From the IMG/VR virus record IMGVR_UViG_3300023106_000004, positions 1-55,987 of that record: a stretch of DNA of 55,987 nt; one strand, given 5' to 3'. This document shows positions 128 through 55,600 of the stretch, in pieces. Numbering within the stretch: position 1 is the first letter of the stretch; each line of letters opens with the position of its first letter. The position numbers and the translations under genes were made by a program. This DNA comes from a virus. Below the pieces are notes generated by a model. The model was not told the origin of the DNA. It was given only the letters and a program-made list of their open reading frames with translations, and did no database searches.

Positions 128-1027
128 CAACCTGTGGGCACTGTTGCAAACGGCGCGACTTTAATTAATTGCATAACTAACGTTTATGATTTTAGAAATG
201 ATTCGTTAGCTTTTCTATTCGACATTACGGGTAAATATCAAGTATTAGAAATCAGTACGTTTGATTCAACTAAAATCAATTTGTCTAGCCCGATTGTCGG
301 ATTGTTTAGAAGTGCATATTTAATGCCATGCAGAATTGGCCGGGTATCCGGTTCAATGGCTAAACAATTTTCTGGTTATTCGGGTAATGTTAAAGTGCAG
401 TTTTTTGTAGAAGATACTTTAGCTATTACAGGTGCTGAACCTACACAGTATCTCAGTAATGATATTTATTTTGAAGCTGGATTATTTGAAAACGGTTCTA
501 CTGAAACTGAAATTGAACAACGTAATGACATTATAGATTTTAATTTAGGCGTTAGCGAAAGTCGCACACCTTGGTTACATGCTAAACATGGTAGACAGCA
601 TAATAGCCAAATGCGTAACGCACAAGAAATTAGAACCTACAAAGAGTTCTTATATCGTCGTGCGGGTAAATCTAAAGTTTTTTGGATGCCTACATTTTTA
701 AACGATCTACGTTTACAAAATACCGGAAACATTGTTTCAACTATCGTTACTTATCGTGATTCGTATTTAGAGTATACGCAAAATCGTGTTCATATTGCTA
801 TTGAAGCTGGCGGGGTTTGGTATCCTAGAATTATTTCCGCACCTACGCCGACTAGTGCGGATACAATGCAATTCACTATCGATAGCCCTTTGAACGTTGA
901 CGCTTCTACAGTTACACGTATAAGCTATTTAGGTTTATATCGCTTAGATTCAGATTCAATTGATTTAAATTATGGAAGTAGTTTATTGACTGAAGCATCA
1001 GTTAGAATTAAAGAATTATTGCCATGA
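2..1027 (+). CDS. minor tail protein, 3' part of the gene that starts at 55724 and crosses the assembly junction (387 aa in total); position of lambda gpM/L or GTA g12
   Basis: Frame of 55724..55987 continues without a stop into the frame of track ORF 89..1027 (55860 is divisible by 3). The gene lies directly downstream of the tape measure. The track start at 89 is a TTG artefact. Confidence 0.6.
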   Translation, partial: RTKARQTLQYQIPLKPATDADVFNTGYGALRKKWAIPLWIEAQPVGTVANGATLINCITNVYDFRNDSLAFLFDITGKYQVLEISTFDSTKINLSSPIVGLFRSAYLMPCRIGRVSGSMAKQFSGYSGNVKVQFFVEDTLAITGAEPTQYLSNDIYFEAGLFENGSTETEIEQRNDIIDFNLGVSESRTPWLHAKHGRQHNSQMRNAQEIRTYKEFLYRRAGKSKVFWMPTFLNDLRLQNTGNIVSTIVTYRDSYLEYTQNRVHIAIEAGGVWYPRIISAPTPTSADTMQFTIDSPLNVDASTVTRISYLGLYRLDSDSIDLNYGSSLLTEASVRIKELLP

Positions 1028-1800
1028 TTATTAAAGAACTGTATTTATTTTCTGATGGCGTAAGCACTTATTATTTTACTAGTTCAGATACTGAAGAAGT
1101 TTATTTAGGTAATACTTATATTCCGATTGCTTTAGGTAGAACAAAAAACCAAGTAAAAAACGAACTATCTAAAGCAAATATTGAAGTTAGTTTTAGTATT
1201 GATAATGAATTTGCACGCGGATATTTAAAATTGGTAGAAGCTATTTTAACGCTTACTGTATTCTCTAAAGTTGACGCTGAAACACCTTTAGTAGAATTTA
1301 AAGGTAGACTAGTTTCGATCAAGCCTGAAGAAACTAAATTAAAGCTTGTATTTGAAACTGTTTTTACGTCATTGCGTAGGCCGGGTTTACGGCGTGCGTA
1401 TCAACGCAATTGCCCACATGTGTTATATGGACGCGGTTGCAATCTAGACAAAGATGATTTTGCTGTTGACGCTGTAGCAACGGCTGTAACTACTACAGGA
1501 ATTGTAGTTCCTATTGCCGCATCGGAACCAGACGGCGTTTATAGTGGTGGCATGGTCCTAGCGCCGGGCGGATTTTTGCGCTTCATTACCGCACATGTGG
1601 GCAGTAATCTAACCCTTATTCGCCCTATACAATCGCTTACCGATACGATTTTAGATGAAGGCTCGGAAGAAATAACTATATACCCCGGCTGCGATAGAAC
1701 TAGGGATGTTTGCGTAAATCGATTTGATAACTTAGAAAATAACGGTTCTACGCCATTCATTCCAATTAGAAATATTTTTAACGGTTCGTCATTTACGTAA
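1024..1800 (+). CDS. tail tip/hub protein, DUF2163 / BR0599-like
   Basis: ATGA overlap with the upstream gene. C-terminal YPGCDRTRDVCVNRFDNLENNGSTPFIP resembles the C..t...C..F.N..nFgG.P.iP signature of the BR0599 / GTA g13 family. Synteny after the tape measure supports the call. Confidence 0.6.
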   Translation: MIIKELYLFSDGVSTYYFTSSDTEEVYLGNTYIPIALGRTKNQVKNELSKANIEVSFSIDNEFARGYLKLVEAILTLTVFSKVDAETPLVEFKGRLVSIKPEETKLKLVFETVFTSLRRPGLRRAYQRNCPHVLYGRGCNLDKDDFAVDAVATAVTTTGIVVPIAASEPDGVYSGGMVLAPGGFLRFITAHVGSNLTLIRPIQSLTDTILDEGSEEITIYPGCDRTRDVCVNRFDNLENNGSTPFIPIRNIFNGSSFT

Positions 1801-1804
1801 TATT

Positions 1805-2214: not shown

Positions 2215-5200
2215 GAAAAAACAAACAGTAGGCTATCGCTACTTTTTGGGACTACATTTTATCGGTTGTCATGGTCCTATTGATAGCGCATTTGAATTTA
2301 TTGCTGACGATAAAATTGCATGGTCTGGTGTAAGCACCGGTGGACCTATTGACGTTGACGCTAAGAACCTTTTTGGTGGTGAAGATAAAGAAGGTGGTGT
2401 TTCCGGCCGTATTGATTTTGAACAAGGTTTGCCGACACAAGGACAAAACGATTATTTAGTTTCTAAGTTATCGCCTAGTTTAGTACCATATTTTAGAGGC
2501 TTGGCCGGTTTTGTTTTCCGTCAAACTTATATCGGTACACAAACATATATCAAGAAGTTCGCTTTTCGTTTATCGCGTATTCATGTACGTGAAAATGGTA
2601 TTGAACAATGGTATGATGAAAAAGCCGAAATTAGTGCATCGCCGCAAACTATAGAAGAAATTAATGCTCAATTAGACGAAGATTTAGGAACTATATCCGA
2701 AGGGTGGCGATATAAACAGGCTATTTTTTCAGATAACGCGGATTATTCAGACCCCGAATACGATGATTCCAGCTGGCCTATTGGTCAAATGCCGTTCGGC
2801 AATGAAAATCATTCTGCAAATTTAGATATTTACGGCTTTCCGACAAATCCTAATACATTTTGGGATGTTGATTCTAAAATTTGGATTAGAAAAACATTTG
2901 AATTAAGCGAAGTAGCTGACATTCTAATTAAAACTTTCCATGACAATTTTGCAACTTATTGGATTAATGGTACTTTAGTTCAAGCGCCATCGGGTGAATA
3001 TGATGAAGAAGGGTATCAAGAATTTATTATACCTAGAGAAGTATTAAGTTTAGGTACTAATCAAATTACAATATTGGCTGCTGATAGGGCTGATGTAGTG
3101 CCAGTTTTAGATCGTTCATATATTGCTACAAGAGCAACTATGGAGGATAGGGGGTATCAAAAGGATATGAACCCTGCCCACATTATTCGGGAGTGTTTAA
3201 CTAATCCTGATTGGGGTATGGGCTATACAGACGCTGATATTGACGATACAGCATTTACTAAAGCTGCTGATACATTATATGCCGAAAAAATGGGCATATC
3301 GCTATTGTGGAATCAGCAAACAGAAATTGAAGATTTTATTAAGTTAATCATTCGTCATATTGATGCTGTATTGTTTGTTGATAGACATACGGGTAAATTC
3401 AATTTAAAGCTTGTTCGTGCTGATTATATTGTCGATGATTTAATTATTTTAAACGAATCTAATATTGAAAAGTTAGACGATTTTACGCGCCCACAATTTG
3501 GCGAATTAACTAATCAAGTAACTGTTAAATATTGGGACGCTGTTAATAATATTGATGCAACAACCAGTATTCAAGATATTGCATTAGCGCAAATGCAAGG
3601 TGTTACGATTAGCGTAACTAATGAATACCCCGGTTTTACTAATGGCAATATTGCCGCTAGAGTCGCACAGCGCGACATGAAAACGCTTAGTTCAGCTATT
3701 GCTAGTTGTACGCTTTATTGTAATCGCGATGCATCGGTATTGAATATTGGAGATACTTTTAAATTATCGTGGACTGATTTTAATTTAAATGAGCTAGTAA
3801 TGCGGATTAGCGGTATTGATTATGGTGATGGAAAAAGCAATCAAGTTCGTATCCAATGCACAGAAGATATTTACGGACTGCCTGCTACGGCTCTAATAAA
3901 TAAAGAGCCTATTGAATGGGAAGACCCAAATTCTAGGCCAATGCCCGCTACAAATAGGCTTGTGTATGAGGTTCCTTATTTAGAAGCCATACAGCAATAT
4001 AGCCAAGCCGAAATCGATGCATTATTAACTGTTGATCCTAATATCGGATACGCAGGTGCTACTGCTGGAAAGCCTAAATCTAGCTATTTAAATGCAAATA
4101 TGTATGTGGATTCTGGCGCTGGTTATCAGAATGAAGCTACTGTTGATTTTTGCCCTATTGCTAAGTTACTTGCTGATATTGATAAAATGGCAACGGCTTT
4201 TGATATTGACAGTGTTGTAGATATTGCAAATGCTGTTGATGGGTCATGGTTTCAAATTGACAATGAAATCATGGTTAAGGTTAGCTATGTTGCGCCAACA
4301 TTGACAGTTAAGCGGGGTGCGCTCGATACGGTGCCCGAAATTCATAGTGCAAATGCAACATTGTATTTTTGGGATAATTACGCAAGTAATGACGATAATC
4401 AATATTTAGCTGGTGAATCGTTAAATATTAAGTTGGCAACTGTTACCGGACTTGGTGAATTGGCATTAGTAGCCGCACCTACTGACACACTAGATATTGT
4501 GGGCAGAATGGCTAGACCTTATCCGCCTGGAAACTTTAAAATTAACGATGAATATTTTCCACCTAGTGGTGGAAGTTCGTTAAATATTTCATGGGCACAT
4601 AGAAGCCGAAAATTGCAAACAGGCGGTATATATTTAGGCTTTACTGATGGTTCGATTGGTCCTGAAACTGGCACTACATATAACGTAAAAATTTACGATA
4701 ATACCGACGAAACTTTACTTTATCAAAACTTAGGTTTAGTTGGCGATTCAGTTTTTCCAATAGTTATTTCTACTAACGAAATTAGAATTGAATTGGAAAG
4801 CCAAAGGGATTCTTTAAATAGTTATCAAAAACAAGTTCATATTTTAGATTTAGGTACATCAGGCGTAGGATACAACTCTAGAGGTTTAGAGGTTGGCGGT
4901 GGTGCTGCTAGATGGGCTGTAGAAGTTGGCGGGTTTATTTATGCCATTAAGGATGCAGGTTTATTAAAACAAAATTTAACTACATTAGTAACTGTAGCGT
5001 CTGATGCTATTAGCAATAACTTAATGGGGATGGTTACGGACGGGACTAACCTATTTACCGTAGATATTGGTAACCCTGGCGGAAGTATCCCCGGAAAGTT
5101 AAGAAAATACGCACCTGATTTGTTAACACATACTGATGTGAATTTTCCAATGTTAGGCGATGGGTTCGGCGTGACATTTGTAGCTGGTTCCGTTTGGGTT

Positions 5201-6307: not shown

Positions 6308-7023
6308 TGTTATTAAATCCTTACCGATTTGGGCCGGGCATTGATGTGGATTTTGCAAAAGTTAAATTACTTTTGCATATGGAAGGTGCAAATAATGCCA
6401 CCAGTTCTACTGACAGTAGTAGTTCGCCAAAAACATTAACGTTTAATGGTAATGCAAAATTAAGCACTGCTCAAAAGCCATTTGGTGCCAGTTCTCTTTA
6501 TATAGATGGCGGTGCAACTAGCTACGTTACTATTGCCGACACTGCTGATTTAGAAATGGGTTCCGGTGACTATACGTTATCACTGTGGGCATACTTCATA
6601 GATGGTTCGCCGGGTGGCGTATTTATGAAAGGTGTTTACACTGGCGGGCCATGGTCCGAAGGTTTTGGAATGCGGTTTCTCGGTAGCTACATGAGGTTTT
6701 ATTACAATACAACTAATAGTAATGCAGGTGAAAAATATAATGATACTGACACAATTTCATTTACTACAGGAACTTGGAACCATTTTGAAATGTGTGTATC
6801 TGGTGGAATAGGATACTGTTTCGTTAACGGTACTTTAATAAGTTTCTTGACCGGGGTTGGTGCTATTACTGACTCTACAGCACCTGTAATAATAGGTAGA
6901 TTCCCGTTTAGTTCCGTAGATCAAGTTATGAATGGATATTTAAAAGATATTAGGTTGATCAAAGGTCAGGCGTTACATACTACTAGTTTTACGCCGCCTA
7001 CTGGACCTTACCCGGACTCTTAA
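6307..7023 (+). CDS. LamG / concanavalin-A-like lectin domain protein (tail accessory)
   Basis: LLLHMEG...FNGNAKLS...GSGDYTLSLWAYF...GYLKDIRLIKGQAL matches the Laminin_G_3 pattern; TAATG coupling to the upstream gene. Confidence 0.65.
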   Translation: MLLNPYRFGPGIDVDFAKVKLLLHMEGANNATSSTDSSSSPKTLTFNGNAKLSTAQKPFGASSLYIDGGATSYVTIADTADLEMGSGDYTLSLWAYFIDGSPGGVFMKGVYTGGPWSEGFGMRFLGSYMRFYYNTTNSNAGEKYNDTDTISFTTGTWNHFEMCVSGGIGYCFVNGTLISFLTGVGAITDSTAPVIIGRFPFSSVDQVMNGYLKDIRLIKGQALHTTSFTPPTGPYPDS

Positions 7024-9116
7024 TCAAATAGATTAGCCGTAACTGGTTTCTTATGAAAGCCTATATCAAATAACATTGATTGGGCTTTTTCTACGTAATA
7101 ACTATAGTTAATATCATCCGGGAACGTATCGGGCATATCCATAATAGGTTTAGCGCCATCGCTATCCCCTACTTTGTTCCCATTTGACACGTAGTTGATT
7201 TGCCCACAGGTGTCTAGAGCGTAATACCAGCGAACCTCTTTACCCAGGTACACCCCGTCTTTATGGCCCCCGCCAGCGACCGATTTGACGGCTACAAATC
7301 GATTTATGTTCGTGCAGCTTCTAATCGATTCTTCAATCGGTTTTTTGCTTATCAAAAAGTCTTTAACGGCTTCAATACAAACGGTAGTAACCGGGTTTTT
7401 GTGGAATCGGAAAATGGCTAATTCGGGATCATCCCACGGATTTTTATATGCGCCGATAGCTTTAGCTTTAACAATACCGTCTTTATCTGGTGTTTTAATA
7501 GCTATGTAGTTATTAACGTCCTTGCTGTAAACGGCTGAATACTTGGTGTTTTCAGTTTTGAATCCTGTATGTTCTTCCCATGCCTTAATAATCTCTGCTT
7601 TACGCGCCTTCAAGATTTTAGGATATTTAGTGACAATACCGTCAGTGTTTGCTGAAATAACGGGAATGTTATTCAATTCAAACATTTCAATAAGCATAAG
7701 CAATAATAACTGCCCGCTTAAGGTTACTTGAATCATCAAATCAGGCGCATAAATTGCGGACCAAATAGAACCAAGTTTACCAAATGAACCGTTAATAACA
7801 ATCTTCAGAGAATCGCTAATAACTTTCCACATCAAAGCGCCAGCTTTATCGCCTTCTTTTTTGCACTTGGCTGCATTGCGTTTGGCTGTTACGCGCTGTT
7901 CTACAATGCCGTCATAAACTTCTAAAAATGCTTCAGTAAGATGCTTTGGAAATAGCTTCAGAATTAGAATGATTCGCGGATAATATGATTCTACATCATC
8001 GTCGTCAATTTCCGTTTCATCATCGGCATAATGCGCAATAGTCTTTTCGCAACTATGAATACCGCCCATGCCCATTTTATAAAGAGCATTACCAACGGCT
8101 ACTTTTAAAACCCATCGGCCTTTATCTTCTGAATCGTCTTTATCGTCTTTAACCAGTTCGCCCAAACCTTCAGGCCAAAGTGGTGCACCCGAATCAGACG
8201 TTACGAATTTAGCCGCTTTGATATCTTCATAAACTTGCTTGAGATACGGGGTCTGAAACTCAATAAATGGCGGCGGTTTATACTGAAAAGTAGTACCGGG
8301 CGGAATATCAGGCCGTTTTACTTCTTTACCTGTAAGACGTTCAATCTCTTTCTTTAATACAGTTTCCGCAATTTGCGCATCAGATTTAGAGCGTAAATCT
8401 ACACCATACTTTTCAGTAAGGTTATAACGCAACTGCATTTGTTCCGATAATTCATCTAGAATTAATTCCGTAGCGGGAATATCGGAACCTAGACAATAAT
8501 TCTTTACGTCTTGCGATTCTTCAAACGTGAGTTCTTTGTTATGGTCAAACGGCAAATCTTGAATACGCTTACCCATTAACCGCGCTGCATATTTCTTTAG
8601 TGAACCTTGCAACGGGCAAACTTCAATCAAATCAATATGATCGATATTCGGTAACTTTAAATTGAATTCTTTACACGCCTGGAAGGGCGTTAATCCCATA
8701 TGAATATCTTTTTGCGGGATGATTTGATTTGAATACGTTTTCAAGCGTTCGGCATTGTAGCCGCGCAATGAAAGCATCAGCATTAATTCATCATATTTTT
8801 TGCTGTTGAATCCGATTAACTGAAAATTGAATATGATCCAATTCAGCAAATCTAAATTCATGCCGCCAATTGGCGTTATTTCTTCAGCCCAATATTTGCC
8901 GAGTTCCTTGCACTTGAATCCAATAAGAAAGTAATTCTTAAAGCATTCAATATCCCATATCATTTTATAGCCGCGTGCACCGGCATCTATTAATTCATCA
9001 AATGTAAAATAATCGATTGGAATTTGACTACGTTTTACAGCAATTGCATCAACCCTTTGTTTAGGCTTCTTAGATACTGCATTGCCGTTTTCATCAGCGA
9101 AAAACTTAATGGTCAT
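7020..9116 (-). CDS. family-B DNA polymerase with 3'-5' exonuclease domain
   Basis: ExoI WDIECF, ExoII NSKKYDELM, Pol motif A DVESYYPRII (DxxSLYPS-like), motif B KIVINGSFGKLG (KxxxNSxYG-like), motif C SANTDGI (DTDS-like). Confidence 0.85.
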   Translation of the reverse strand: MTIKFFADENGNAVSKKPKQRVDAIAVKRSQIPIDYFTFDELIDAGARGYKMIWDIECFKNYFLIGFKCKELGKYWAEEITPIGGMNLDLLNWIIFNFQLIGFNSKKYDELMLMLSLRGYNAERLKTYSNQIIPQKDIHMGLTPFQACKEFNLKLPNIDHIDLIEVCPLQGSLKKYAARLMGKRIQDLPFDHNKELTFEESQDVKNYCLGSDIPATELILDELSEQMQLRYNLTEKYGVDLRSKSDAQIAETVLKKEIERLTGKEVKRPDIPPGTTFQYKPPPFIEFQTPYLKQVYEDIKAAKFVTSDSGAPLWPEGLGELVKDDKDDSEDKGRWVLKVAVGNALYKMGMGGIHSCEKTIAHYADDETEIDDDDVESYYPRIILILKLFPKHLTEAFLEVYDGIVEQRVTAKRNAAKCKKEGDKAGALMWKVISDSLKIVINGSFGKLGSIWSAIYAPDLMIQVTLSGQLLLLMLIEMFELNNIPVISANTDGIVTKYPKILKARKAEIIKAWEEHTGFKTENTKYSAVYSKDVNNYIAIKTPDKDGIVKAKAIGAYKNPWDDPELAIFRFHKNPVTTVCIEAVKDFLISKKPIEESIRSCTNINRFVAVKSVAGGGHKDGVYLGKEVRWYYALDTCGQINYVSNGNKVGDSDGAKPIMDMPDTFPDDINYSYYVEKAQSMLFDIGFHKKPVTANLFD

Positions 9117-10129
9117 TAAACGCTCATTCCCATAATTCCGCCGCGCACCTTATCGCCAAAGAATAAAGTTAAATGCCTGTCATTCACTTCAAAGTGTACA
9201 CTGTGGGCATATGGGCGAATCAGTTTCAAATAATTCAAATTGAATGCTAAACCCGGTTTGATACCTTCAATATCATACGTTGTTGCATTTTCCAATTTTA
9301 CACCATTTGACATTTTACCGTCAAGAAAATAAATTTTATTGTCAGTTGTAAACGGTGCTACGTTTTCTAACGCTTCATAAAATCCTGCCGGTAACGGCCA
9401 CGGATTAGAAGCTACGTCTAAAATTAGTTCGTATTTAGGGTAACCGTCAACAAACAATTGCGACTTAATAAAACTACCATCTTCAAAGTAGAACGTTGCA
9501 CTGTTCGCACTAAAACCAAAAGACTTTAGCGGTTTGTCTGATTTAACAATTGCATTAGCGGATGCCTTTGGTAATAGGATATTTGGCGGTAAATCGATTC
9601 CGTGCCACGCTTCAATAATAACGTGTCCATTGGTAGCTACTGAGGTATTGGCCTGAAGCAACACGCTGCATTTAAAAGGTCTGTCGGCCTTGTCATCAGC
9701 AAGGGGCAGGCAAGCCGCTAGCGCGGTTTTTAGAGCATCGGTAAGGGTAGCAACAGGCGGGTCCGGTTCGATGCCTGGAATGTCGGAAAAGGGCACGCAT
9801 GGGACCAATGCGCGGAACTTGCCCGACTTGATAGACAAGCGCCCGCTATCCAGTTCGGTAATTGAAATTGCTTCTTTGCACTTTGACAGTGCTGCAATTA
9901 ACGTATTGGTGTGCGGACAAACGTTTAGTGTTTCGTCAACATAGTGGCCTGCTGCTAAACCGCCATCAAAGCCCGTTACCGTACCGCCTGCAATGCGACA
10001 ATGCATTTGCATCGGTGTTCCGTCTGAATGCTGTGCTACTGAAATAAACTTCAATGCTTCTAATAAGCTGCACCCCGGTGTAGCTTTTTCAGCGGCAGGT
10101 TTACGGGCGCGGGGTTTAGCTGTTGCCAT
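9116..10129 (-). CDS. DNA polymerase sliding clamp, bacterial beta (DnaN)-like
   Basis: LLEALKFISVAQ...; LSIKSGKFRALVPCVPFSDIP resembles the DnaN l.v.sG.s.f.l..l.a.dFP pattern; about 337 aa; translationally coupled to the polymerase gene. Confidence 0.6.
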   Translation of the reverse strand: MATAKPRARKPAAEKATPGCSLLEALKFISVAQHSDGTPMQMHCRIAGGTVTGFDGGLAAGHYVDETLNVCPHTNTLIAALSKCKEAISITELDSGRLSIKSGKFRALVPCVPFSDIPGIEPDPPVATLTDALKTALAACLPLADDKADRPFKCSVLLQANTSVATNGHVIIEAWHGIDLPPNILLPKASANAIVKSDKPLKSFGFSANSATFYFEDGSFIKSQLFVDGYPKYELILDVASNPWPLPAGFYEALENVAPFTTDNKIYFLDGKMSNGVKLENATTYDIEGIKPGLAFNLNYLKLIRPYAHSVHFEVNDRHLTLFFGDKVRGGIMGMSV

Positions 10130-10307
10130 ATAAATTATTACCGTATAAAGCGGTTGCTGTTACAGCAAACGACGAACTATAATCAATTCCTGGCTTTCCA
10201 AAAGGATTAGATTTACCATTAAATTCTAACCGTTTTTGCTTTTGTCCGCCTTCCATATGCATAATCCACAAATATGCAATAGGTTTGTCTTTTGGTTCGA
10301 TAATCAT
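10116..10307 (-). CDS. hypothetical protein (63 aa)
   Basis: ORF in an operon with overlapping start/stop; no motif recognised. Confidence 0.5.
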   Translation of the reverse strand: MIIEPKDKPIAYLWIMHMEGGQKQKRLEFNGKSNPFGKPGIDYSSSFAVTATALYGNNLYGNS

Positions 10308-10603
10308 TTGTTATCATCCGATTGTTTATCCATTTCAACTAATAAACGTTGCAAGTAATTAGCCATATCCAAAGCTTCCTCCAACGCATGATTAATCCAG
10401 TATCTCGAATCGCCTAAATTTTCATACAATGTGGTGTTGTATTTCTTAATGCCCACAGTAGACCGCGATTTAAGCTTTTCGCAAACCATATCTACAATTG
10501 GGTCTGATTTTAAACTAGCATCAAATGCTTTTAATCCACAATTACACGCGAATTTTTGGTTCATACCGCCGCCGCATTTAATACAATAAATAGTAGTTAG
10601 CAT
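10304..10603 (-). CDS. hypothetical zinc-ribbon protein with MazG-like helical C-terminus
   Basis: N-terminal CIKCGG...CNCG; C-terminal W.NHALEEALDMANYL resembles the EExxD helix of all-alpha NTP pyrophosphatases (weak). Confidence 0.5.
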   Translation of the reverse strand: MLTTIYCIKCGGGMNQKFACNCGLKAFDASLKSDPIVDMVCEKLKSRSTVGIKKYNTTLYENLGDSRYWINHALEEALDMANYLQRLLVEMDKQSDDNK

Positions 10604-10612
10604 TTTTAATCC

Positions 10613-10849
10613 TTAAAACGGAATTTCAAAATCGTGATCTTTACAACCACTTACAATAATGAAAGCTGGCGGTCTACCTTTAAACAGTAAACAGTTTTCA
10701 CTTTTTTCCTCAAAGTTACAGCAATTCATACAACTTTGCCAAGTGTAGTCACTGACAATTTTATCCTGAAATGCGATTCTGCGCAATACTTTTTCTTTGT
10801 TCAGTTCAAAAGAACCGACAATTGGCGGTGCTGGTTTGTATGCAGCCAT
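10613..10849 (-). CDS. small Cys-rich protein ending in an SSB-tip-like DFEIPF motif
   Basis: ATG at 10849, 2 nt after the helicase stop; CMNCCNF...C...C cysteines; C-terminus KDHDFEIPF. Confidence 0.55.
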   Translation of the reverse strand: MAAYKPAPPIVGSFELNKEKVLRRIAFQDKIVSDYTWQSCMNCCNFEEKSENCLLFKGRPPAFIIVSGCKDHDFEIPF

Positions 10850-10851
10850 AA

Positions 10852-12516
10852 TTAAAACTCCCAATTTATAACTTCTGGATAGCGTAAATTGGCATGCACC
10901 AACATCGCCTTAGGTTGTCGCAATTCATTTGTGCGACTCAAAAACTCATTAACCGTTTTTGGTGGTTCGGTTGCAGCGTGACGTTTCCACCATTCGCGGG
11001 CGTTGTGTCCTGGCCGTCCGGTGTGTTCAAAGCATAGAAACATATTAATAGTTCTAATGCCGAATGGGTAAATAGCTTTCACTGTGGGCGGGCTAATAAT
11101 TCCTGCTGCTTTTTGTTTACCTTCATGCCGTTGATAAATAACCGGGCGTTTAATTGGTACAGTTTCAAAAACAGGGTTTTCATCTTCTTTCATCGGTGCA
11201 TTATTAAATGCAGTAGCCGACAATTTAGTTTCAAAACTGAATTCTTCAGCGCAACCACAGCAAAATCTAACTGACGCATGGTTATATTCATCACAGCCTA
11301 AAACCCATTCTTTAGGGTCTTTGCCTTTATTAACTAGCAGTTTCTCGGCAGAGCAAATTTTAATTGGTGGCGGTTCGCCTGTTTTTTCACCCGGTTTGCG
11401 CGGCAATACAGGATCATCGATAGGACCATTGCGTCCGATATTGCCCACAAAATCCAACACCCTGCAATTGTTTTTGCCTGGACTAACCCGCGTACCGCGT
11501 CCGTATTTCTGAACGTGTTTGCCTGGGCTGCATGTGGGCTGAAAGTCTCCAATTAAATCAATACGTGGATTGTCGTAACCAGTGGTGAGCATATTAGCGC
11601 CGACAATGCACCAATATTCATCATTATCAAATGCTTCTAAACGTTTGCGGTTTGTCTCAGAATCCAATTTAGAATGCACAAAAGTTACTGACGCGCCAAA
11701 CGAATCAAGCATATTTGCAATATGTTCGGCGTTCTTTACACCGGCTGCAAATATCATGCATTTCTGCCTATCGTATCCAATCTCTAATAACTCTTTGCAA
11801 GCGTTATAGGTAATTTCATCTGTATCAACCAATGCTTCAGCCTGTTTATTATTGAAGTCTCCACCAATAATAGACAATTGCGAAACGCCGTTAATAACGG
11901 TTTTAGTGGGCTTACCAACTAGCGGGCTCAAGTAGCCTTCAGCAATCAAGCGTTTAAACCATTCGTGAGTAGTAATATCAAAACAAATATCGCTAAACAA
12001 ACCACCATCGGTAAGCTTGCCCATTTTCAAACGGTAAGGTGTGGCGGTGAATCCAATAACTTTAAGATATGGATTAATTTTAGTCAGTGCTGCAATAACC
12101 TTCAGGTATTGTGAATCTTCATCGGACCCTAATAGGTGCGATTCATCAATTAGAATCAAATCCCTATGGCCGAATGCTTCAGGGTTTTTAGCAACAGACT
12201 GCACGCCACCAAAGATAATAGGCATCATCGTATCGCGTTGACCCAATCCGGCAGAATGAATGCCAATAGGTGCGGTAGGCCAAAAGGTTTGCATTTTCTG
12301 CGCGTTTTGCAGAATTAGTTTCCAAACGTGAGTAAGCATCAATACCCGCTGATTCGGGTAGAACCTGAATACGTCGCGCAGAAAATCGGCAATAACAATT
12401 GATTTACCGGAACCTGTGGGCATACACACCAACGGGTTGCCCTTACCGCCTTTTTCGTAATAGTCGAAAATGGCGTTCTTTGCATCAGTTTGGAAATAAT
12501 GCGGGGTGATTATCAT
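10852..12516 (-). CDS. SF2 DEAD/DEAH-box DNA helicase
   Basis: Walker A MPTGSGKS, motif II LIDESH, motif III TATP, motif VI QKYGRGTR; Cys-rich C-terminal extension. Confidence 0.85.
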   Translation of the reverse strand: MIITPHYFQTDAKNAIFDYYEKGGKGNPLVCMPTGSGKSIVIADFLRDVFRFYPNQRVLMLTHVWKLILQNAQKMQTFWPTAPIGIHSAGLGQRDTMMPIIFGGVQSVAKNPEAFGHRDLILIDESHLLGSDEDSQYLKVIAALTKINPYLKVIGFTATPYRLKMGKLTDGGLFSDICFDITTHEWFKRLIAEGYLSPLVGKPTKTVINGVSQLSIIGGDFNNKQAEALVDTDEITYNACKELLEIGYDRQKCMIFAAGVKNAEHIANMLDSFGASVTFVHSKLDSETNRKRLEAFDNDEYWCIVGANMLTTGYDNPRIDLIGDFQPTCSPGKHVQKYGRGTRVSPGKNNCRVLDFVGNIGRNGPIDDPVLPRKPGEKTGEPPPIKICSAEKLLVNKGKDPKEWVLGCDEYNHASVRFCCGCAEEFSFETKLSATAFNNAPMKEDENPVFETVPIKRPVIYQRHEGKQKAAGIISPPTVKAIYPFGIRTINMFLCFEHTGRPGHNAREWWKRHAATEPPKTVNEFLSRTNELRQPKAMLVHANLRYPEVINWEF

Positions 12517-13604: not shown

Positions 13605-13980
13605 GCATAAGGTTTAATGCCAAATTCAAGTTAGAAGGCGACAATAAACCAATATGGCAATCTTCGTTATCTGGTAAATCTAATTCTTTTGCTAACCATT
13701 TATACGCATCGTCGCGGCTTAAATAACGTAATTGCCAAATAGGGTCAAATGCTTCATGCAATTTTGCACGTTTGCGTCTGATCGATGCAACCGCCATTAA
13801 TCCCATTGGATTATGTGTATTAGGATGACAGCCTACCATTGCGCCGCAATCATCGCAATAATAACAATAGGGCCATTCGCCCTTTTCAATACCATAAAGA
13901 ACAGAATTAGAAGTTAGTCCGATTCTGTCGGATTGACAGCTATCACAATTATCTGGCGGTGGTAACTGTTTCTTTTGCAT
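13486..13980 (-). CDS. zinc-finger protein (DUF3268-like)
   Basis: CDSC...CYYCDDCG pairs; basic C-terminus. Confidence 0.5.
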   Translation of the reverse strand: MQKKQLPPPDNCDSCQSDRIGLTSNSVLYGIEKGEWPYCYYCDDCGAMVGCHPNTHNPMGLMAVASIRRKRAKLHEAFDPIWQLRYLSRDDAYKWLAKELDLPDNEDCHIGLLSPSNLNLALNLMRAHSSNNYIQFKRRKEKNATRQRERYARQNDKIGRRKSG

Positions 13981-14196: not shown

Positions 14197-14198
14197 AA

Positions 14199-14855: not shown

Positions 14856-14867
14856 ATTAAATCTACC

Positions 14868-41367: not shown

Positions 41368-41412
41368 AAATATTTTGTGCAACTGCCCACAATCGGTTAT
41401 ATACTCGCGCAC

Positions 41413-43975: not shown

Positions 43976-44024
43976 GGCCCTATAAAAGCTTGCATCACTG
44001 TGGGCATTTATAGGGCCTTATTTT
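43976..44024 (+). terminator. 11-bp perfect stem-loop plus T tract after the capsid gene; the loop carries CTGTGGGCA
   Basis: GGCCCTATAAA (43976..43986) pairs with TTTATAGGGCC (44007..44017); the 20-nt loop ends with the motif (43998..44006); followed by TTATTTT. Confidence 0.6.
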
Positions 44025-44036: not shown

Positions 44037-44321
44037 ATGGCTAATGAAGAACTAACCTATTTTAACGTTAAGAATAAAAGTATTCGCCTTGTCCATATCG
44101 GCGGTGTTTCTATTCCACCTGAAAAAGTGGTTGCGGTATTGGATGATGAAAAGGGTATTAATCGTATTGACGTCGAAGGTTCGGAATATCTGGAAGAAAC
44201 CGACGAAGAGGTTAGCGATATGCCCACAGTAGAAGCTGAAAAGCCGAAAGCTACTAAGAAGGCCGCTAAAACCGAAACCGCTACTAAGACGGCTACTGGT
44301 GCAGGTTGGAATTCTAAGTAA
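44037..44321 (+). CDS. hypothetical acidic protein with Lys/Ala/Thr-rich tail (94 aa)
   Basis: GGAG RBS; track ORF. Confidence 0.55.
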   Translation: MANEELTYFNVKNKSIRLVHIGGVSIPPEKVVAVLDDEKGINRIDVEGSEYLEETDEEVSDMPTVEAEKPKATKKAAKTETATKTATGAGWNSK

Positions 44322-45353: not shown

Positions 45354-45677
45354 ATGGCTACATATTCTGAGTTGGCGGCTGTCGCTGCTGATAGAACATC
45401 GCAAACCGAAGCTTTACGGGTTCGGATTCAGGTAGCTTCAGTATTAGCATGTGAAGCTATTAGACAAGAGGTTGTAACTACACCTAACCATGCTGCGCGG
45501 GTAGCATGGGCAGTTAACGTAATGAATAGCCCCGGTGCGTGGCAAGATCGCGTACTGTGGGCAGTATTGGCGCAAAACTCTACTGCTACCACTGCACAAA
45601 TTTTAGCTGCTGATGATGCAACCGTGTTAGCTAAAGTTTTATTAGCTGTAAACCTGTTAGCTGGTGGCATTGCATAA
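45354..45677 (+). CDS. hypothetical structural-module protein (107 aa)
   Basis: Track ORF. Confidence 0.55.
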   Translation: MATYSELAAVAADRTSQTEALRVRIQVASVLACEAIRQEVVTTPNHAARVAWAVNVMNSPGAWQDRVLWAVLAQNSTATTAQILAADDATVLAKVLLAVNLLAGGIA

Positions 45678-48803: not shown

Positions 48804-49180
48804 TGGCTCGATTTGATAGACAAATCAAGACCGCGCTACGGTTGATCCAAAAGAACGGGCAAGCTGTAGCATGGGTTAAAACGGTGGATGCGATTCCAGA
48901 TGCGGATATGCCATGGTTACCTGTGGGCACAACGAACACGAATTTTGCACCGTACATTTGTTTCTTGCCATTAGATTTACAGGGTAAAGAGTTTTTGCAT
49001 GCGTTAGGGGTTACCGATGCATTTACAGGTACATATTACGGTTTAATGGGTAATGTACCTTTTGAACCGTTGGTTACTGACGTTGTTACTAGGGATGGCG
49101 TTAAATTGGATATTGCAAGTATTGATTTGCTTTCTCCAAACGGCCAAAAGATTTTATACACAATCATTTTTAATGGGTGA
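48803..49180 (+). CDS. head-closure / head-tail joining protein (tentative)
   Basis: Size and position; TAATG coupling. Confidence 0.4.
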   Translation: MARFDRQIKTALRLIQKNGQAVAWVKTVDAIPDADMPWLPVGTTNTNFAPYICFLPLDLQGKEFLHALGVTDAFTGTYYGLMGNVPFEPLVTDVVTRDGVKLDIASIDLLSPNGQKILYTIIFNG

Positions 49181-49438: not shown

Positions 49439-49884
49439 TGATAACGTCATATTCAATCGCTAGGAATGAGATATTCGGGCAATTGAATATCGTAAAACCG
49501 GCTTTGGCAACGCTGTTAGGCTATGCTCCGAAAATTATTTATCAAGGTGTTGAATCTAGCGATAAAATGCCCACAGATGGGCTTTGGATTCGCGCATCTA
49601 TGGTCACTGTTGACGAGAGCCAAGCAACATTACGTGATGATAACGGGCGACGTTATAACACTGATGGTATATTTTTTGCACAAATTTTTATTCCTAAAGT
49701 GCCTGTTGAAATGTATGACAAAGGTGTAAAAACGGCCGAAATAATCAAAAATGCTTATCGGGGTAAACAAACCGAAAGCTGTATATGGTTCAATCGGGTG
49801 CGAATTCAAGATAACATACCGTCCGAATCGGCTTGGTTCCGGCTTAATGTGGTTGCAGAATATCAATACGACGAAATAGGATAA
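49438..49884 (+). CDS. tail terminator-like protein (DUF4128-like)
   Basis: Pattern ...KIIYQGVE...DGLWIRASMV...GIFFAQIFIP...AWFRLNVVAEYQY; lies directly upstream of the major tail gene. Confidence 0.5.
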   Translation: MITSYSIARNEIFGQLNIVKPALATLLGYAPKIIYQGVESSDKMPTDGLWIRASMVTVDESQATLRDDNGRRYNTDGIFFAQIFIPKVPVEMYDKGVKTAEIIKNAYRGKQTESCIWFNRVRIQDNIPSESAWFRLNVVAEYQYDEIG

Positions 49885-49894: not shown

Positions 49895-51451
49895 ATGGTT
49901 TGCGCAATTAATAAAATCGATTCAAACATTACCGGTTTAGCTTTTGCTGAAGAGGTTTGTTTGAAACAATTACCTGCTACGGTGCCAGATGGTTTTGAAC
50001 CCACATGGTACGGGTTAGAGCCTAATAGTTATTCTGATTTAGGTGGTGAAATCTCTACGGTTGCACGCGCACCTATTGATCCGTCACGCCAAAATAAGAA
50101 GGGTACTATTACCGACTTGGATGCATCGGGCGGTTTCAATACCGACTTTACGCAATCCAATATGACTCGTTTATTGCAAGGTTTCTTCTTTGCAGATGCG
50201 CGTCAACCATCTAGCACGCAACCTTTAAACGGTACGCAAATTCCTGTAACTGGTGTTGTTGGTTCGTCTAAGACGTATTCGGCTGCATCCGGTTTGGCCG
50301 TCTTTGCAGTGTCTAATTTGATCGAAGCCACAGGCTTCAATCAAGCATCTAACAACGGTTTAAAGACTGTTGCAACCTCTGCCGCAGGTGCTATTACAGT
50401 TGCCGAAGTTCTGGTTGATGAAGCAAGCCCGCCAGCTACCGCACGTTTAGACCGCGTAGGCTTTCAGTTTGCATCGGCCGATATTAACATTGCGGTTACT
50501 GCCGGTATTCCATCGCTGACGGCTACGGCTGCAACGTTTAATACTAATGCAGATTTGTTTCCTGGCAAGTGGATTTTCTTAGGTGACGATACTGTAGGTA
50601 ATCGTTTTGCAAATAACGTTGGTTATGCGCGCATCAAATCGATTGCAGCTAAGTCTATCACGTTTGACCAAACGACTTGGACGCCAGTTAACGAAACGGG
50701 CACAGGTAAGACTATTCGTATTTATGTGGGCACTTCCATTAAAAACGAATTGCTACCATCGCTGATTAAAAAGCGTAGCTATAATATTGAACGTCAATTA
50801 GGTTTAGGCGCGTCCGCTACTCAAGCTGAGTATTTGGAAGGTGCAGTTGCTAATGAATTCACGCTGAATATTCCACAAGCTGACAAGCTGAATGCCGATC
50901 TTTCGTTTATTGCTAGTGGTAATACGCAACGTTCGGGCGAAAGTGGCGATTTGATTAAAGCTGGTACGCGAGTTGCTGCTCCTGGTGAAGATGCGTTCAA
51001 TACGTCATCTAATATCTATCGCATGAAGCTGTCTGTTGTTGATCCTACATCCTCTAATCCTACGTCTTTATTCGGTTACGCAACTGAAGCAAATGTTTCG
51101 ATTAATAATGGTGTGACTCCAGATAAAGCAATTGGTGTATTAGGCGGATTCGACGTTAGCTTAGGTAACTTTGAAGTTGGCGGTTCGGTTACTGCTTATT
51201 TCACTACTGTTGCTGCCGTTAAAGCTGTTCGTAATAACGCTGACGTAGGTTTACATATCATTGCAGCTTCTAAGAATGCAGGTTTCATCTTTGACATTCC
51301 ATTATTGGGCTTAGGTGGTGGTCGTGTGACGGTTGAAAAAGATGCGCCTGTCATGTTGCCATTGGAAACCGCCGGTGCACAAAATGCTAACGGTTATACG
51401 ATGCTTTATGACAACTTCCCATATCTGCCGAATATTGCTATGCCGGTCTAA
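49895..51451 (+). CDS. major tail (tube) protein, 518 aa
   Basis: Synteny (after the terminator-like gene, before the chaperones and tape measure); strong RBS and a strong downstream terminator imply high expression. Confidence 0.6.
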   Translation: MVCAINKIDSNITGLAFAEEVCLKQLPATVPDGFEPTWYGLEPNSYSDLGGEISTVARAPIDPSRQNKKGTITDLDASGGFNTDFTQSNMTRLLQGFFFADARQPSSTQPLNGTQIPVTGVVGSSKTYSAASGLAVFAVSNLIEATGFNQASNNGLKTVATSAAGAITVAEVLVDEASPPATARLDRVGFQFASADINIAVTAGIPSLTATAATFNTNADLFPGKWIFLGDDTVGNRFANNVGYARIKSIAAKSITFDQTTWTPVNETGTGKTIRIYVGTSIKNELLPSLIKKRSYNIERQLGLGASATQAEYLEGAVANEFTLNIPQADKLNADLSFIASGNTQRSGESGDLIKAGTRVAAPGEDAFNTSSNIYRMKLSVVDPTSSNPTSLFGYATEANVSINNGVTPDKAIGVLGGFDVSLGNFEVGGSVTAYFTTVAAVKAVRNNADVGLHIIAASKNAGFIFDIPLLGLGGGRVTVEKDAPVMLPLETAGAQNANGYTMLYDNFPYLPNIAMPV

Positions 51452-51951: not shown

Positions 51952-52302
51952 TTGGCGTATTTGCTTGAACATGGGCCAAACGAGCAAAATATAGCTAGGC
52001 AAGCTCTGCAAATGGGTCAACCATTACCAGACTTCTTAGTTAATGCGCCAAAACTACAATTAGGCTTGCAAGTATTTTTGCAAGCCTTTTTTGATTTAGA
52101 TAGCGAACGGTCTAACGGTATGGGGGTTACAATGATCCCTTGGAGTAGTATAAAAAACTACGCACAGGCTTATGATTTTGATACTGAATTGACAGAAGAT
52201 TTAATTTATTTAGTTCGGCAAATGGATATTGCCCACACTAAGAGAATGGAAGAAAAATCAAAGGTTAACGATGGCGCGAACTCTAGGCGGATTGGCGGAT
52301 AG
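51952..52302 (+). CDS. second tail assembly chaperone-like protein
   Basis: PKLQLGLQVFLQAFFDLDSERSNGMGVTMIPWSSIKNYAQAY...DLIYLVRQMD resembles small chaperones found upstream of tape measures. TTG start, uncertain. Confidence 0.5.
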   Translation: MAYLLEHGPNEQNIARQALQMGQPLPDFLVNAPKLQLGLQVFLQAFFDLDSERSNGMGVTMIPWSSIKNYAQAYDFDTELTEDLIYLVRQMDIAHTKRMEEKSKVNDGANSRRIGG

Positions 52303-52690
52303 GTTAGATAAATTGGCGGAAGAATCGCCAAAAATGGGTTCTAATTTGGCCGTTAAAACTGCATTTATCGGCTTAAAAGTTTTGTATAACCGGACGCCTG
52401 TTGACACTTCACAGGCTGTTTCTAACTGGATAGTTTCTTTAGAGAAACCTGATTACAGGTTTATTGATCCATATGTACCGGGTTATTTAGGTTATACGGC
52501 TGCATCTAGTATTGCTGCCGCAATGATGCAAGCTGAAAACATTTTAGCTACTAAGAAGCCTGGACAAACAATTTATATTACCAATAACGCGCCGTATATT
52601 CGTGATTTAAATTCCGGTACGTCTAGACAAGACCCGGGCGGATTTGTGGAAGCATCGGCTTTAATTATGCGCAAGTCGCTAAAACATTAG
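52271..52690 (+). CDS. HK97 gp10-like tail-completion family protein (tentative)
   Basis: RTPVDTSQAVSNW resembles the vDTGnLrnS motif; ATG at 52271 inside track ORF 52229..52690; 32-nt overlap with the upstream gene. Confidence 0.45.
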   Translation: MARTLGGLADRLDKLAEESPKMGSNLAVKTAFIGLKVLYNRTPVDTSQAVSNWIVSLEKPDYRFIDPYVPGYLGYTAASSIAAAMMQAENILATKKPGQTIYITNNAPYIRDLNSGTSRQDPGGFVEASALIMRKSLKH

Positions 52691-52697
52691 GATTAAT

Positions 52698-55600
52698 ATG
52701 GCTGACGAAAGTGTAGTTATTGAGATTATCGACAAAGTAGATAATTCTATTGCGTCAAAAATTAAAGCAATCGCAACCGAAGCAAGGGCCGGGCAAACAT
52801 CATTAAATAGTCTTCAAGACGCTATTAATAAATTAGACGGTACAAAATTACAAAGCATTGTTAATAACTCCAGTTTGGCTAGTTCGGCATTAAATAAACT
52901 AGCTACCGCACAATCGCAATTAGCTACAGCACAAGCAAAGACTGCACAGGCCACGGCACAGGCTCAAGCGGCGCAGTCGCGCGCTACGGCTGCGGCAACT
53001 GCCGCCCAGGTGGCTACCGAAAAGCTTGCCGCCGCAGAGGCTAGGACGGCTGCTGCGCGTGATGCTGCCACGAAGTCAGCACTTAGCCTAGCTGCCGCCC
53101 AGGATCGCGCCACAGCCCGTGCTAAGGCCGCTGCCGATGCAGCTACCGCCGCCGCTGTGGCCGCTGCAAAAGGAACAAGCGCCATTGAAAAACAAGGTGT
53201 AGCGTTTAACAAATCTGGAATTTCTGTTAAACAATATAACGCTGCAATGCGTGGGGTTCCTGCGCAGATTACCGATATTGTTGTATCGTTACAAGGCGGA
53301 CAACGCCCTCTAACTGTTTTGCTGCAACAAGGCGGACAATTAAAAGATATGTTCGGCGGTGTATTGCCTGCATTGCGGGCGTTATCTGTGGGCTTACTGG
53401 CGCTGATTAATCCATTTACAGCCGTAGGTGCAGCAATCGCATTGTTTCTTTTTTCAATGTATAAAGTTGAAACGGCAATGCGAGAATTGAATGGTTTAGC
53501 TGCACAGTTTGCAGCAACCGGACGAAGTGATATCGATAAAAGTTTCATTGTTCAATTACGTAAAGAATTGATGCTTTTACCGGATGTGTCTAAAGCCGCC
53601 GCAAATGAAATTATTTCTTCTTTTGCTGAAGTTAGAAACGTTAGCTCTACTACGTTAAAAGCTGCCGCTGGTGTAGTTTCTGACTTAGCAACCGCATTGG
53701 GTACAGATACCCCTAAAGCTGCTAAAACTTTAGCTGATGCTTTAAAAGACCCTGTTAAGGGTGCTATTGATCTAGATGAAAAGTTAGGTTTCTTAACTGA
53801 AACTGATTTTAAAACGATCAAAAGTTTGCAGGATTTAGGTAAAACTGCCGAAGCTCAGAAAATCATTATTGATAGGTTAAGTGGCGCAATTGGTGGCTTA
53901 ACTAATGATTCGATGACGCCATTGCAAAAAGCGACAACTGATTTAGGTAATGCGTGGAATAAGTTTACTGGTGAAATGGCTAATACCGGCCCTATTGCCG
54001 CCGCAAATGCTTTCTTAGCTAAAACATTAGACGGTTTAACTTGGATTTTGGATAAGCTTTCAAGCTGGAAAATGCCCACATGGTTAGAAGGCATGTTCAA
54101 AGGTGGCTTGAATGGCATGGTGGCTAATGCGTTAGGCATGAATGACCAAAAAGGCGGTGCTACTGGCTCATGGGAACAGCCGCGTACACGCACGGCTGCA
54201 CAATTAAAGCCTACCAAATTAAAGACTGACGCGGCAGGTATTACGGGTAAAAAAGGTTCAGATAAAACTGAAGAAAACCGCGCTACAGCTTTAGCTAAAG
54301 TTAATCTGCAATTAGATAATCAGCTAAAAGTTATGCGTATGCTTGGCCCTGAAGCTGAGAAATATGAAATGTTTAGCCGTATTGAAGAAGGTTTAATTGG
54401 TCGCAAAATTAAATTAAATGCTGAAGAAACGCAAACAATTAAAGACAAAATTGCCGCTATTGTAAATGGCCGTGAACTGCAACAGGAAACTAACCGTATT
54501 TACGAAGAATCGGTTTCACCTTTACGTAATTATCAAACGTCTTTGCAAGCAATTAATAATTTGCTAGAGGCCGGTACGATTACACAAGCTGATGCCAATA
54601 AGCAAACTTTACTAGCTTTCCAAGCATATGAGAAAATTAACGCACCGTTAAATGAGTATCACAAGGCGCTAGACGATGAAGCTGCATTGCGTAAGTTTCA
54701 CGGTACTCAATTAGAGCAAGAAACCGCACAACAGAACATTATTAACGATTTGTTGACTAAAGGTATTGTTTTACGTAAAGACGAATTACAGACGCTGTTT
54801 GATCGTATCAAAGCCGGTCGTGAACTTAACGCAATTCACGCGGCAGAGAATCAATTAATTGCGGATTCTGTGGGCAAACGTCAAGCCGAAATTACACAGT
54901 TAACTGCAATTAAGAATTTAAAAGCTGATCCGAAAAGCGGATTTACTGAAGGCGATGCTTCTAAAGCTACTGCCGATATTCTACAATCGTCGGGATTTGA
55001 TACGTCAATGTTGCAAGTTGGTGCTGACGCACAAGTTGCAGTTTATCAAAGCATGTACGACAAGATTAAACAGTTGCGCGAAGCAAATTTGATTAATGCA
55101 CAAGATGCAGCAATGTTAGAGGCGCAAGTTAAGATTAAACAACTTGATACGCAGACGGCATTTGCACAAAGTTACTTTACCGGTTTAGCGCAATTATCAA
55201 ATTCCTCTAACAAAAAGTTAGCGACTATTGGTAAAGCTGCCGCAATCAGCAATGCTATTATTGACACGTACAAGGCCGCTACGGGCGCGTATGCGTCCCT
55301 AGCGTCTATCCCCTTTGTCGGACCTGCATTGGGTGCTGCTGCCGCTGCTGCCGCCATTGGCGCGGGTATGGCGAACGTGCAAGCCATTCGGTCACAGGGA
55401 TACAAAGAAGGCGGCTACACCGGCAATCTACCAAAGAGTGCTGTAGCTGGTTCGGTTCACGGTCAAGAGTATGTTATGGATGCTGCAACTACTTCGCGTA
55501 TCGGTGTTGACAATTTAGATGCAATGCGACGTAACGGTAGATTGCCCACAGGTGGCAACAATACTGCGCCTGCTGTAAATCAAAACAATAACAACATGAA

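Follow-up and report, generated by a model that had tools for sequence, protein, structure and literature searches.

Why should the copies of one short word almost alternate in orientation along a phage genome? The question is raised by a complete IMG/VR phage record, IMGVR_UViG_3300023106_000004, the whole of whose 55,987 bp was analysed and is referred to below as the window. The 8-mer TGTGGGCA recurs throughout it, and a copy is designated F where the word lies on the + strand and R where it lies on the - strand. Here we report that the alternation is a by-product of two independent, regular and similarly dense arrays, one on each strand, and that the word keeps company with a primase-polymerase (prim-pol). 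The copies are probably high-efficiency priming sites of the phage's own AEP prim-pol/helicase, encoded at 17472-19820.

Orientation and spacing of the copies

A pattern search of the window returned 43 exact copies of TGTGGGCA, 23 F and 20 R (Table 1), where shuffles predict 1.65. All 42 copies listed in the initial annotation are correct, as is its statement that the two orientations are balanced in number; the single copy that it missed is the F at 12415, lying between the R copies at 11442 and 12602. By position the orientations run FRFRFFRFRRFRFRFRFRFRFFFRFRFFRFRFRFRFFRFRRFR. The record begins and ends with a 127-bp terminal repeat (1-127 is identical to 55861-55987), which holds no copy of the word and leaves a unique circle of 55,860 bp; 127 bp is a direct-repeat length typical of the assembler k-mer overlap on a circular assembly. 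The word is sharply bounded, since GTGGGCA without the preceding T does not occur in the window, and one-mismatch words, of which there are 26 copies across 24 variants, are at background. Four one-mismatch copies (11083 F, 20154 F, 22029 R and 53387 F) had been thought to restore alternation where it lapses. All four exist, but the class to which they belong does not exceed background and the bias in their placement is not significant (P = 0.10), so that they do not rescue the pattern.

Orientation switches between 35 of the 42 neighbouring pairs (36 of 43 on the circle), against a label-shuffle expectation of 21.4 with a standard deviation (SD) of 3.2. The exact Wald-Wolfowitz probability of at least 36 runs is 1.15e-5, and 200,000 label shuffles gave 1e-5; the excess over chance is slightly stronger in the computed list than had first been described. 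Each strand is also evenly populated when taken by itself. The F gaps have a coefficient of variation (CV) of 0.435 (P < 5e-5) and a maximum of 4,284 nt, and the R gaps a CV of 0.563 (P = 0.005) and a minimum of 992 nt (P = 0.0004), so that like-oriented sites are more evenly spaced than random, a point that the initial annotation had raised. With the exception of one gap of 310 nt, same-strand neighbours are at least 992 nt apart, at a mean interval of 2.5 kb on the + strand and 2.8 kb on the - strand. The closest neighbours of opposite orientation lie only 185, 187 and 222 nt apart.

We compared the observed switches with a rotation null, in which each strand's array was kept intact and the R array was turned round the circle against the F array. 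For the window, the rotations gave a mean of 30.6 switches (SD 2.35), and 3.8% of them reached or exceeded the observed 36 (P = 0.038). For 14 genomes together no excess of switches was left (Fisher P = 0.77), and opposite-strand distances were those that independence predicts. In the window the median nearest opposite-strand distance was 724 nt, compared with 719 and 673 nt in two rotation nulls, and over the genomes the distances between F and R copies ranged from 2 nt to several kb without a preferred value.

The same picture emerges from 12 other genomes with the same or a sister word. Alternation recurs in them (runs tests, Fisher-combined P = 9e-9), with a P value of 1.4e-6 for Vibrio phage VpKK5 by itself, and their same-strand CV tests combine to a Fisher P of 7e-18. 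Short gaps are rare in the pool of 384 same-strand gaps, with 2.3% below 0.25 of the genome mean against 22% expected, and so are long ones, with 4.4% exceeding twice the mean against 13.5% expected; their distribution has a gamma shape of 3.3 and a 5th percentile of 1.1 kb. Opposite copies lie as close as 2 nt in VpKK5 and 24 nt in Acinetobacter phage Loki. Alternation is thus a by-product of the two per-strand arrays, and it becomes nearly automatic because two interleaved regular arrays have similar density. The two orientations neither substitute for nor interact with each other: since same-strand copies avoid each other while opposite-strand copies are independent, the word is read strand-specifically. 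More generally, before the alternating orientation of a dispersed word is called design, it should be compared with a null in which per-strand spacing is preserved.

The word is maintained at the level of DNA. Forty of the 43 copies lie inside genes and fall in all six frames, where they encode Val-Gly, Trp-Ala, Pro-Thr, Ala-His and other pairs; an origin in a protein motif was ruled out on account of these differing peptides. In an alignment with the nearest capsid relative of the window (G001; 65-77% identical DNA), five of the eight alignable copies are kept exactly, where at 70% identity an 8-mer would be expected to survive by chance in about 6% of cases. The exact 9-mer CTGTGGGCA favours the coding strand in the rightward genes (15 sense, 4 antisense), as had been noted, because 15 of the 22 sense copies of the word use the codon frame xxT-GTG-GGC-A (Val-Gly). 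Flank preferences occur on the 5' side only and depend on lineage, being AA in Loki and Lucius and AT in phage 73.

Distribution of the word across phages

The replication module of the window comprises a DNA polymerase (7020-9116), a sliding clamp, an SF2 helicase, a Cas4-type exonuclease, SSB, Sak4 and the AEP prim-pol/DUF3987 protein. Pseudomonas phage 73 and numerous further siphoviruses have similar modules, and the prim-pol of phage 73 is 54% identical to that of the window. Megablast of the phage collection revealed no near relative of the window as a whole. Its nearest capsid relative, the above-mentioned G001 (63% identical, a 35.7-kb fragment), has 19 copies of TGTGGGCA, more distant capsid relatives have 0-2, and five capsid relatives without the prim-pol likewise lack the word. 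We also counted TGTGGGCA over six whole phage genomes of ~36-45 kb, all of which carry the prim-pol and for which 1-1.6 copies are expected, and found 19 copies in Pseudomonas phage 73, 18 in Xanthomonas Pfeifenkraut, 16 in Rhodobacter RcMotherGoose, 19 in Sphingomonas Lucius, 14 in Achromobacter phiAxp-1 and 13 in Acinetobacter Loki. The hosts of these TGTGGGCA-rich phages are Alpha-, Beta- and Gammaproteobacteria, and no terminase or capsid similarity was detectable between the window and the 73-like phages that share its word. The cross-host sharing, together with the lack of the word in capsid relatives that have no prim-pol, indicates that the word travels with the replication module and not with the host or the virion. 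A packaging or capsid signal was rejected for the corresponding reasons, namely the unrelated terminase and capsid of the word-sharing phages and the capsid relatives without the word.

Phages in which the full-length prim-pol is 26-33% identical have almost no TGTGGGCA, and each has its own enriched sister word. This is TGTGGTTA in Cronobacter CSP1 (46 copies) and Pseudomonas Iggy (42), TGTGGTCA in Stenotrophomonas Siara (39), E. coli JenP2 (38) and Vibrio VspDsh_1 (43), and the pair TGTGGCCA and TGTGGTCA (TGTGGYCA) in VpKK5, with 21 and 22 copies respectively, 43 together. All words found have the pattern T-GTGG-NN-A (TGTGGNNA). Every tested phage with a full-length prim-pol at least 26% identical, whatever its host, has TGTGGGCA or a TGTGGNNA variant at 10-40 times the expected frequency, with even spacing on each strand; a word is present in 13 of the 13 other phages compared at this level, its last letters being clade-specific. 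VpKK5 has the most regular spacing among the genomes tested (CV 0.25 and 0.30), and its opposite-strand pair 2 nt apart is as the overlapping form TGTGGCCACA predicts. We noted that the longest same-strand gaps of the window hold near-cognate words at 26522 and 27936 (+) and at 34334, 36195 and 37041 (-), among them TGTGGTCA and TGTGGCCA, which are sister words in other clades; their presence there is not statistically significant and is at most suggestive of weak back-up sites.

Outside this range of similarity the pattern fades. Rhizobium RHEph05, with a prim-pol of 24% identity, shows enrichment of the shorter CTGTGG only, and no word of the TGTGGNNA type was found in NrS-1, Salmonella Sasha or Bacillus rho14, where the prim-pol match covers 20-41% of the length. 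Sasha, which matches over ~40% of the length in the N-terminal part only, contains the unrelated 11-mer CACGAGCGGAA 13 times where ~0.1 is expected, and the NrS-1 genome contains the 9-mer AAGTGTAAC 11 times where ~0.2 is expected.

Phages with the word always carry the prim-pol, the SF2 helicase and the clamp, and the Cas4-type exonuclease is missing from phiAxp-1 despite its 14 copies. In the prim-pol tree the phages with GTTA/GTCA words form a clade with 100% support, and VpKK5 lies outside it. In a quick tree of the SF2 helicases, the VpKK5 protein is sister to that of VspDsh_1, yet its prim-pol lies outside the clade and its word set is odd. Minor as it is, this case discriminates, and it hints that the word follows the prim-pol.

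The word in chromosomal islands

On scanning bacterial genomes with the prim-pol alignment we found 74 loci. A cluster of the word is present at six chromosomal loci, in Pseudotabrizicola, a Paracoccaceae metagenome-assembled genome (MAG), two Sphingobium, a Syntrophobacteraceae MAG and Caballeronia. These islands (L081, L082, L083, L084, L085 and L087) have 5-9 copies of TGTGGGCA, TGTGGGTA or TGTGGTCA within ~4-9 kb, and all six lack the Cas4-type exonuclease. When every open reading frame (ORF) of at least 40 amino acids was compared by tblastn, the sole match between the window and the islands was to the first ~290 residues of the prim-pol, so that the AEP and helix-bundle part is the only component common to both. 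The Pseudotabrizicola sp. island, L081, occupies 7858-15194 of a 20.8-kb locus, with nine copies between 8286 and 14980. Its genes include one for a tyrosine integrase and one for a 781-aa protein that has both DUF3987 and the NrS-1 helix-bundle domain (HBD). The DUF3987 helicase domain remains recognisable by profile in the island homologues except in L085, where the prim-pol domain is a separate protein of 338 aa and the island holds seven copies of TGTGGTCA. With a tyrosine integrase, a few small ORFs and a prim-pol/helicase set in an otherwise word-free chromosome, the islands resemble satellite-type elements that bring their own pair of primase and word.

The chromosomes themselves are at background for the word: two Sphingobium and the Pseudotabrizicola genomes contain 60-137 copies per 4.3-4.8 Mb, compared with 38-80 of a control word. 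In the one chromosome whose prim-pol island was examined (G010), nine of the copies lie in that 6.7-kb island and stand out from this background. As for the host of the window, the contigs with the nearest prim-pols are Pseudomonadota and Methylococcaceae MAGs, and a PEP-CTERM sorting signal in the product of 21938-22663 (+) (Pfam E 5e-6) points to a Gram-negative bacterium that has an exosortase.

The prim-pol as candidate reader

Comparison of the window prim-pol with the PDB by phmmer gave matches to the NrS-1 primase (6A9W, E 2.7e-17) and to the primase 7OLA (E 8.7e-31). A model of the N-terminal 310 residues has a mean pLDDT of 87.6, with helices at 198-304, and its best Foldseek matches were NrS-1 N300 (E 4e-17), aligned over the whole length (~306-317 columns), and the pRN1 primase 3M1M including the helix bundle (E 6e-8). 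The Pfam family NrS1-1_pol-like_HBD scores 21.2 bits in the window protein, below its cut-off, and 38 bits, above it, in the L081 homologue. The enzyme is accordingly predicted to have an AEP catalytic domain with a helix bundle directly after it, as in NrS-1 and pRN1 ORF904. A 231-aa product encoded elsewhere in the window (24497-25192, -) matches the C-terminal end of relatives' prim-pol/helicases (among others L073, L074 and L075; residues ~145-230).

The template preferences of this type of enzyme are documented. The helix-bundle domain of pRN1 ORF904 binds the template 5'-GTG-3', whereas the start sites of the NrS-1 prim-pol are 5'-GTGG-3', 5'-GTGA-3' and the 8-mer 5'-TTTGGTTA-3', and its synthesis begins with the base immediately 5' of the site (PMC8718748). 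A single base separates the sister word TGTGGTTA from that 8-mer. The comparisons above demonstrate a strand-specific word acting in cis, laid out in independent even arrays and tied across hosts and islands to a prim-pol of this fold; we infer further that the enzyme would bind TGTGGGCA and start primers there.

The following scheme would account for these features. TGTGGGCA would be a cis-acting word belonging to the phage replication module, each strand keeping its own array at intervals of roughly 1-4 kb independently of the other strand. The prim-pol would read the word on single-stranded template through its helix-bundle domain, + copies serving forks that move one way and - copies forks that move the opposite way. 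Evenness may arise from diminishing returns, in that a copy would be kept only where a long stretch of the strand has none, and a redundant copy near another on the same strand would not be maintained. Weaker initiation at plain GTG, as in NrS-1, may fill in between the 8-mers.

Several observations weigh against the scheme. In relatives, strands run for 10-19 kb without a copy, so that the 8-mer cannot be the sole priming site, and several relatives are unbalanced between strands (14:5 in Lucius, 6:12 in Pfeifenkraut). The preference for C at -1 on the 5' flank in the window is largely a codon effect. The NrS-1 genome is not enriched for TGTGGNNA and has a single copy of its published site TTTGGTTA. 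Of the chromosomal loci whose prim-pol N-terminus is 40-48% identical, about half have no clear word cluster, some of these cluster-free loci being broken genes. Lastly, the SF2 helicase and the clamp track the word in phages as faithfully as does the prim-pol, and it is the islands alone that separate them.

Alternative explanations

The prim-pol/helicase, or another protein of the module, might read the word for a strand-specific purpose other than priming, such as helicase pausing or loading, a Chi-like switch, or a self-mark that steers replication or recombination. The comparisons tie the word to the prim-pol/helicase and to a non-interchangeable orientation but not to a particular activity, the island homologues retain their helicase domain, and multi-kb spacing with gaps of up to 19 kb in relatives would fit a guidance signal equally well. 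We nevertheless consider such a use unlikely, as the prim-pol domain in L085 stands without DUF3987 in an island that has the word, and the GTGG core agrees with the template specificity documented for the enzyme family (PMC8718748). The Cas4-type exonuclease was rejected as reader, and a RecB-like Chi reader is unlikely, because this exonuclease is missing from phiAxp-1 and the islands. Chi sites, recognised by RecBCD or AddAB, do share with TGTGGGCA the length of 8 nt, the dependence on orientation, the reading of a single strand by an enzyme in motion and the logic of serving both directions; unlike it they are host-specific, co-oriented with replication and not evenly spaced, and no helicase-nuclease is consistently present with the window word. 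The proposal in the initial annotation of an orientation-dependent site for both directions of travel therefore survives in part: strand-specific reading and recurrence at short intervals fit it, whereas alternation as a designed layout does not. The related suggestion that copies act as inverted pairs, in looping, bridging or head-to-head encounters of a translocating enzyme, with alternation itself under selection, draws on the very strong raw runs test and on the slight excess of the window alone over its rotation null. We find it very improbable, given that switches in the 14 genomes fit that null and that opposite-strand copies are independent with no favoured distance.

Site-specific single-strand nicks in virion DNA, as found in T5, phiKMV-like phages, tf and Rembedalsseter, offer another precedent, since their motifs are short, asymmetric, dispersed inside and outside genes and conserved within a phage group. 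The motifs are TACT/RTGMC in tf and WACTRTGAC in Rembedalsseter; the Bruynoghevirus/tf form WACT/RTGAC, nicked exactly before RTG, resembles the TAC-TGTG context (with the letters ACT-GTG) that is commonest in the window (PMC11780129, PMC3517423). In tf and Rembedalsseter, however, all motif copies are on one strand, whereas the window and all its relatives have the word on both, and opposite copies 2-24 nt apart, as in VpKK5 and Loki, would yield double-strand breaks if both were nicked. A link through a shared primase was not found, no homologue of the prim-pol N-terminus being detectable in LUZ24 or tf, and no nuclease is common to the window and the islands. Nanopore studies of the Iggy lineage and of CAjan mention neither nicks nor the word, a weak negative. 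Nicks were physically demonstrated in the phages with nick motifs, and we regard nicking as an improbable function of TGTGGGCA. Least credible, to the point of being almost negligible, is a host-determined signal, an uptake sequence or host Chi, accumulated by the phage, and a framing of the word in these terms is refuted. One copy per 1.3 kb on both strands does recall the uptake signal sequences (USS) and DNA uptake sequences (DUS) of bacteria, which are likewise short, asymmetric, present at ~1 per kb on both strands and located inside genes; for Haemophilus, significant even spacing, and not alternation, is what Karlin et al. report as cited in PMC1939737. Such words belong to host chromosomes and are specific to bacterial families. 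TGTGGGCA, by contrast, follows a phage replication protein: the same 8-mer is enriched in phages whose hosts belong to three proteobacterial classes, and it is at background in the three host chromosomes searched. It is also lacking from capsid relatives that have no prim-pol, and one-mismatch decay products are absent.

Relation to known priming sites

Phage T7 gp4, in which primase and helicase are fused, starts primers at defined words of the lagging-strand template (5'-GTC-3' and extended pentamers). It is composed of a DnaG/TOPRIM primase and an SF4 helicase, unrelated to the AEP prim-pol, and its 3-5-nt site is frequent by chance; we know of no planted or evenly spaced array of T7 gp4 sites. 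The sites of NrS-1 and pRN1 ORF904 are closer, with the same fold and domain order (AEP followed by helix bundle), GTGG in the word and strand-specific reading. They differ in having been defined on oligonucleotides, TGTGGGCA being known from its occurrence in genomes alone, and we found no description of a genome-wide, evenly spaced, clade-specific 8-mer array for them. Full-text literature searches on these words in connection with phages or primases, on over-represented recognition sites of primases and on regularly spaced priming likewise returned no description. Primase recognition sites as such are known; what would be new here is their occurrence as a selected, evenly spaced and clade-specific array of an 8-mer.

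Table 1. Coordinates of the TGTGGGCA copies and of the candidate reader in the window
Feature	Position	Strand	Basis
TGTGGGCA copy F	133-140	+	exact match
TGTGGGCA copy R	1411-1418	-	exact match
TGTGGGCA copy F	1596-1603	+	exact match
TGTGGGCA copy R	3175-3182	-	exact match
TGTGGGCA copy F	4498-4505	+	exact match
TGTGGGCA copy F	6584-6591	+	exact match
TGTGGGCA copy R	7201-7208	-	exact match
TGTGGGCA copy F	9202-9209	+	exact match
TGTGGGCA copy R	10450-10457	-	exact match
TGTGGGCA copy R, kept at homologous place in G001	11442-11449	-	exact match and alignment
TGTGGGCA copy F, kept in G001, absent from the initial annotation	12415-12422	+	exact match and alignment
TGTGGGCA copy R	12602-12609	-	exact match
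TGTGGGCA copy F	13596-13603	+	exact match
TGTGGGCA copy R, intergenic	14875-14882	-	exact match
TGTGGGCA copy F	15662-15669	+	exact match
TGTGGGCA copy R	17276-17283	-	exact match
TGTGGGCA copy F	17992-17999	+	exact match
TGTGGGCA copy R	19268-19275	-	exact match
TGTGGGCA copy F	22276-22283	+	exact match
TGTGGGCA copy R, intergenic	24460-24467	-	exact match
TGTGGGCA copy F, opens the sole same-strand gap <990 nt (310 nt)	25509-25516	+	exact match
TGTGGGCA copy F	25819-25826	+	exact match
TGTGGGCA copy F	29156-29163	+	exact match
TGTGGGCA copy R	29966-29973	-	exact match
TGTGGGCA copy F	31534-31541	+	exact match
TGTGGGCA copy R, opens the longest same-strand gap (6320 nt)	32052-32059	-	exact match
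TGTGGGCA copy F	32776-32783	+	exact match
TGTGGGCA copy F	36787-36794	+	exact match
TGTGGGCA copy R, kept in G001	38372-38379	-	exact match and alignment
TGTGGGCA copy F	38897-38904	+	exact match
TGTGGGCA copy R	39745-39752	-	exact match
TGTGGGCA copy F	40468-40475	+	exact match
TGTGGGCA copy R, kept in G001	41384-41391	-	exact match and alignment
TGTGGGCA copy F, intergenic, kept in G001	43999-44006	+	exact match and alignment
TGTGGGCA copy R	44221-44228	-	exact match
TGTGGGCA copy F	45556-45563	+	exact match
TGTGGGCA copy F	48922-48929	+	exact match
TGTGGGCA copy R	49568-49575	-	exact match
TGTGGGCA copy F	50725-50732	+	exact match
TGTGGGCA copy R	52230-52237	-	exact match
TGTGGGCA copy R	54073-54080	-	exact match
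TGTGGGCA copy F	54869-54876	+	exact match
TGTGGGCA copy R	55543-55550	-	exact match
AEP primase-polymerase/DUF3987 helicase fusion, 782 aa, candidate reader	17472-19820	+	phrog_3022 E 1.8e-232; Pfam DUF3987, NrS-1 HBD
Prim-pol N-terminal 310 residues, AEP catalytic and helix-bundle domain (predicted)	17472-18401	+	model, Foldseek, tblastn

Implications

Primase specificity is usually treated as a 3-5-nt preference that is met by chance in any genome. Here an exact 8-mer is held by selection inside genes and spaced evenly per strand, from phages of Rhodobacter to those of Acinetobacter, with last letters that change with the clade. If it is a priming site, the pattern of lagging-strand fragments would be predictable from sequence, and could be tested in cultured phages such as 73, Loki and JenP2. 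A broader and more doubtful possibility, which we put forward tentatively, is that a large phage and small-island group writes the start points of discontinuous synthesis into its genomes, with TGTGGNNA every few kb on each strand, clade variants that change with the primase, and the element's own AEP prim-pol as reader. Were this true, word and enzyme would travel together as a portable pair and label the DNA to be replicated as belonging to the element, and islands with the same pair could be replicated selectively or could exploit a helper's enzyme. The word would also serve as a marker in metagenomes for the replication module and for unrecognised satellite-like islands.

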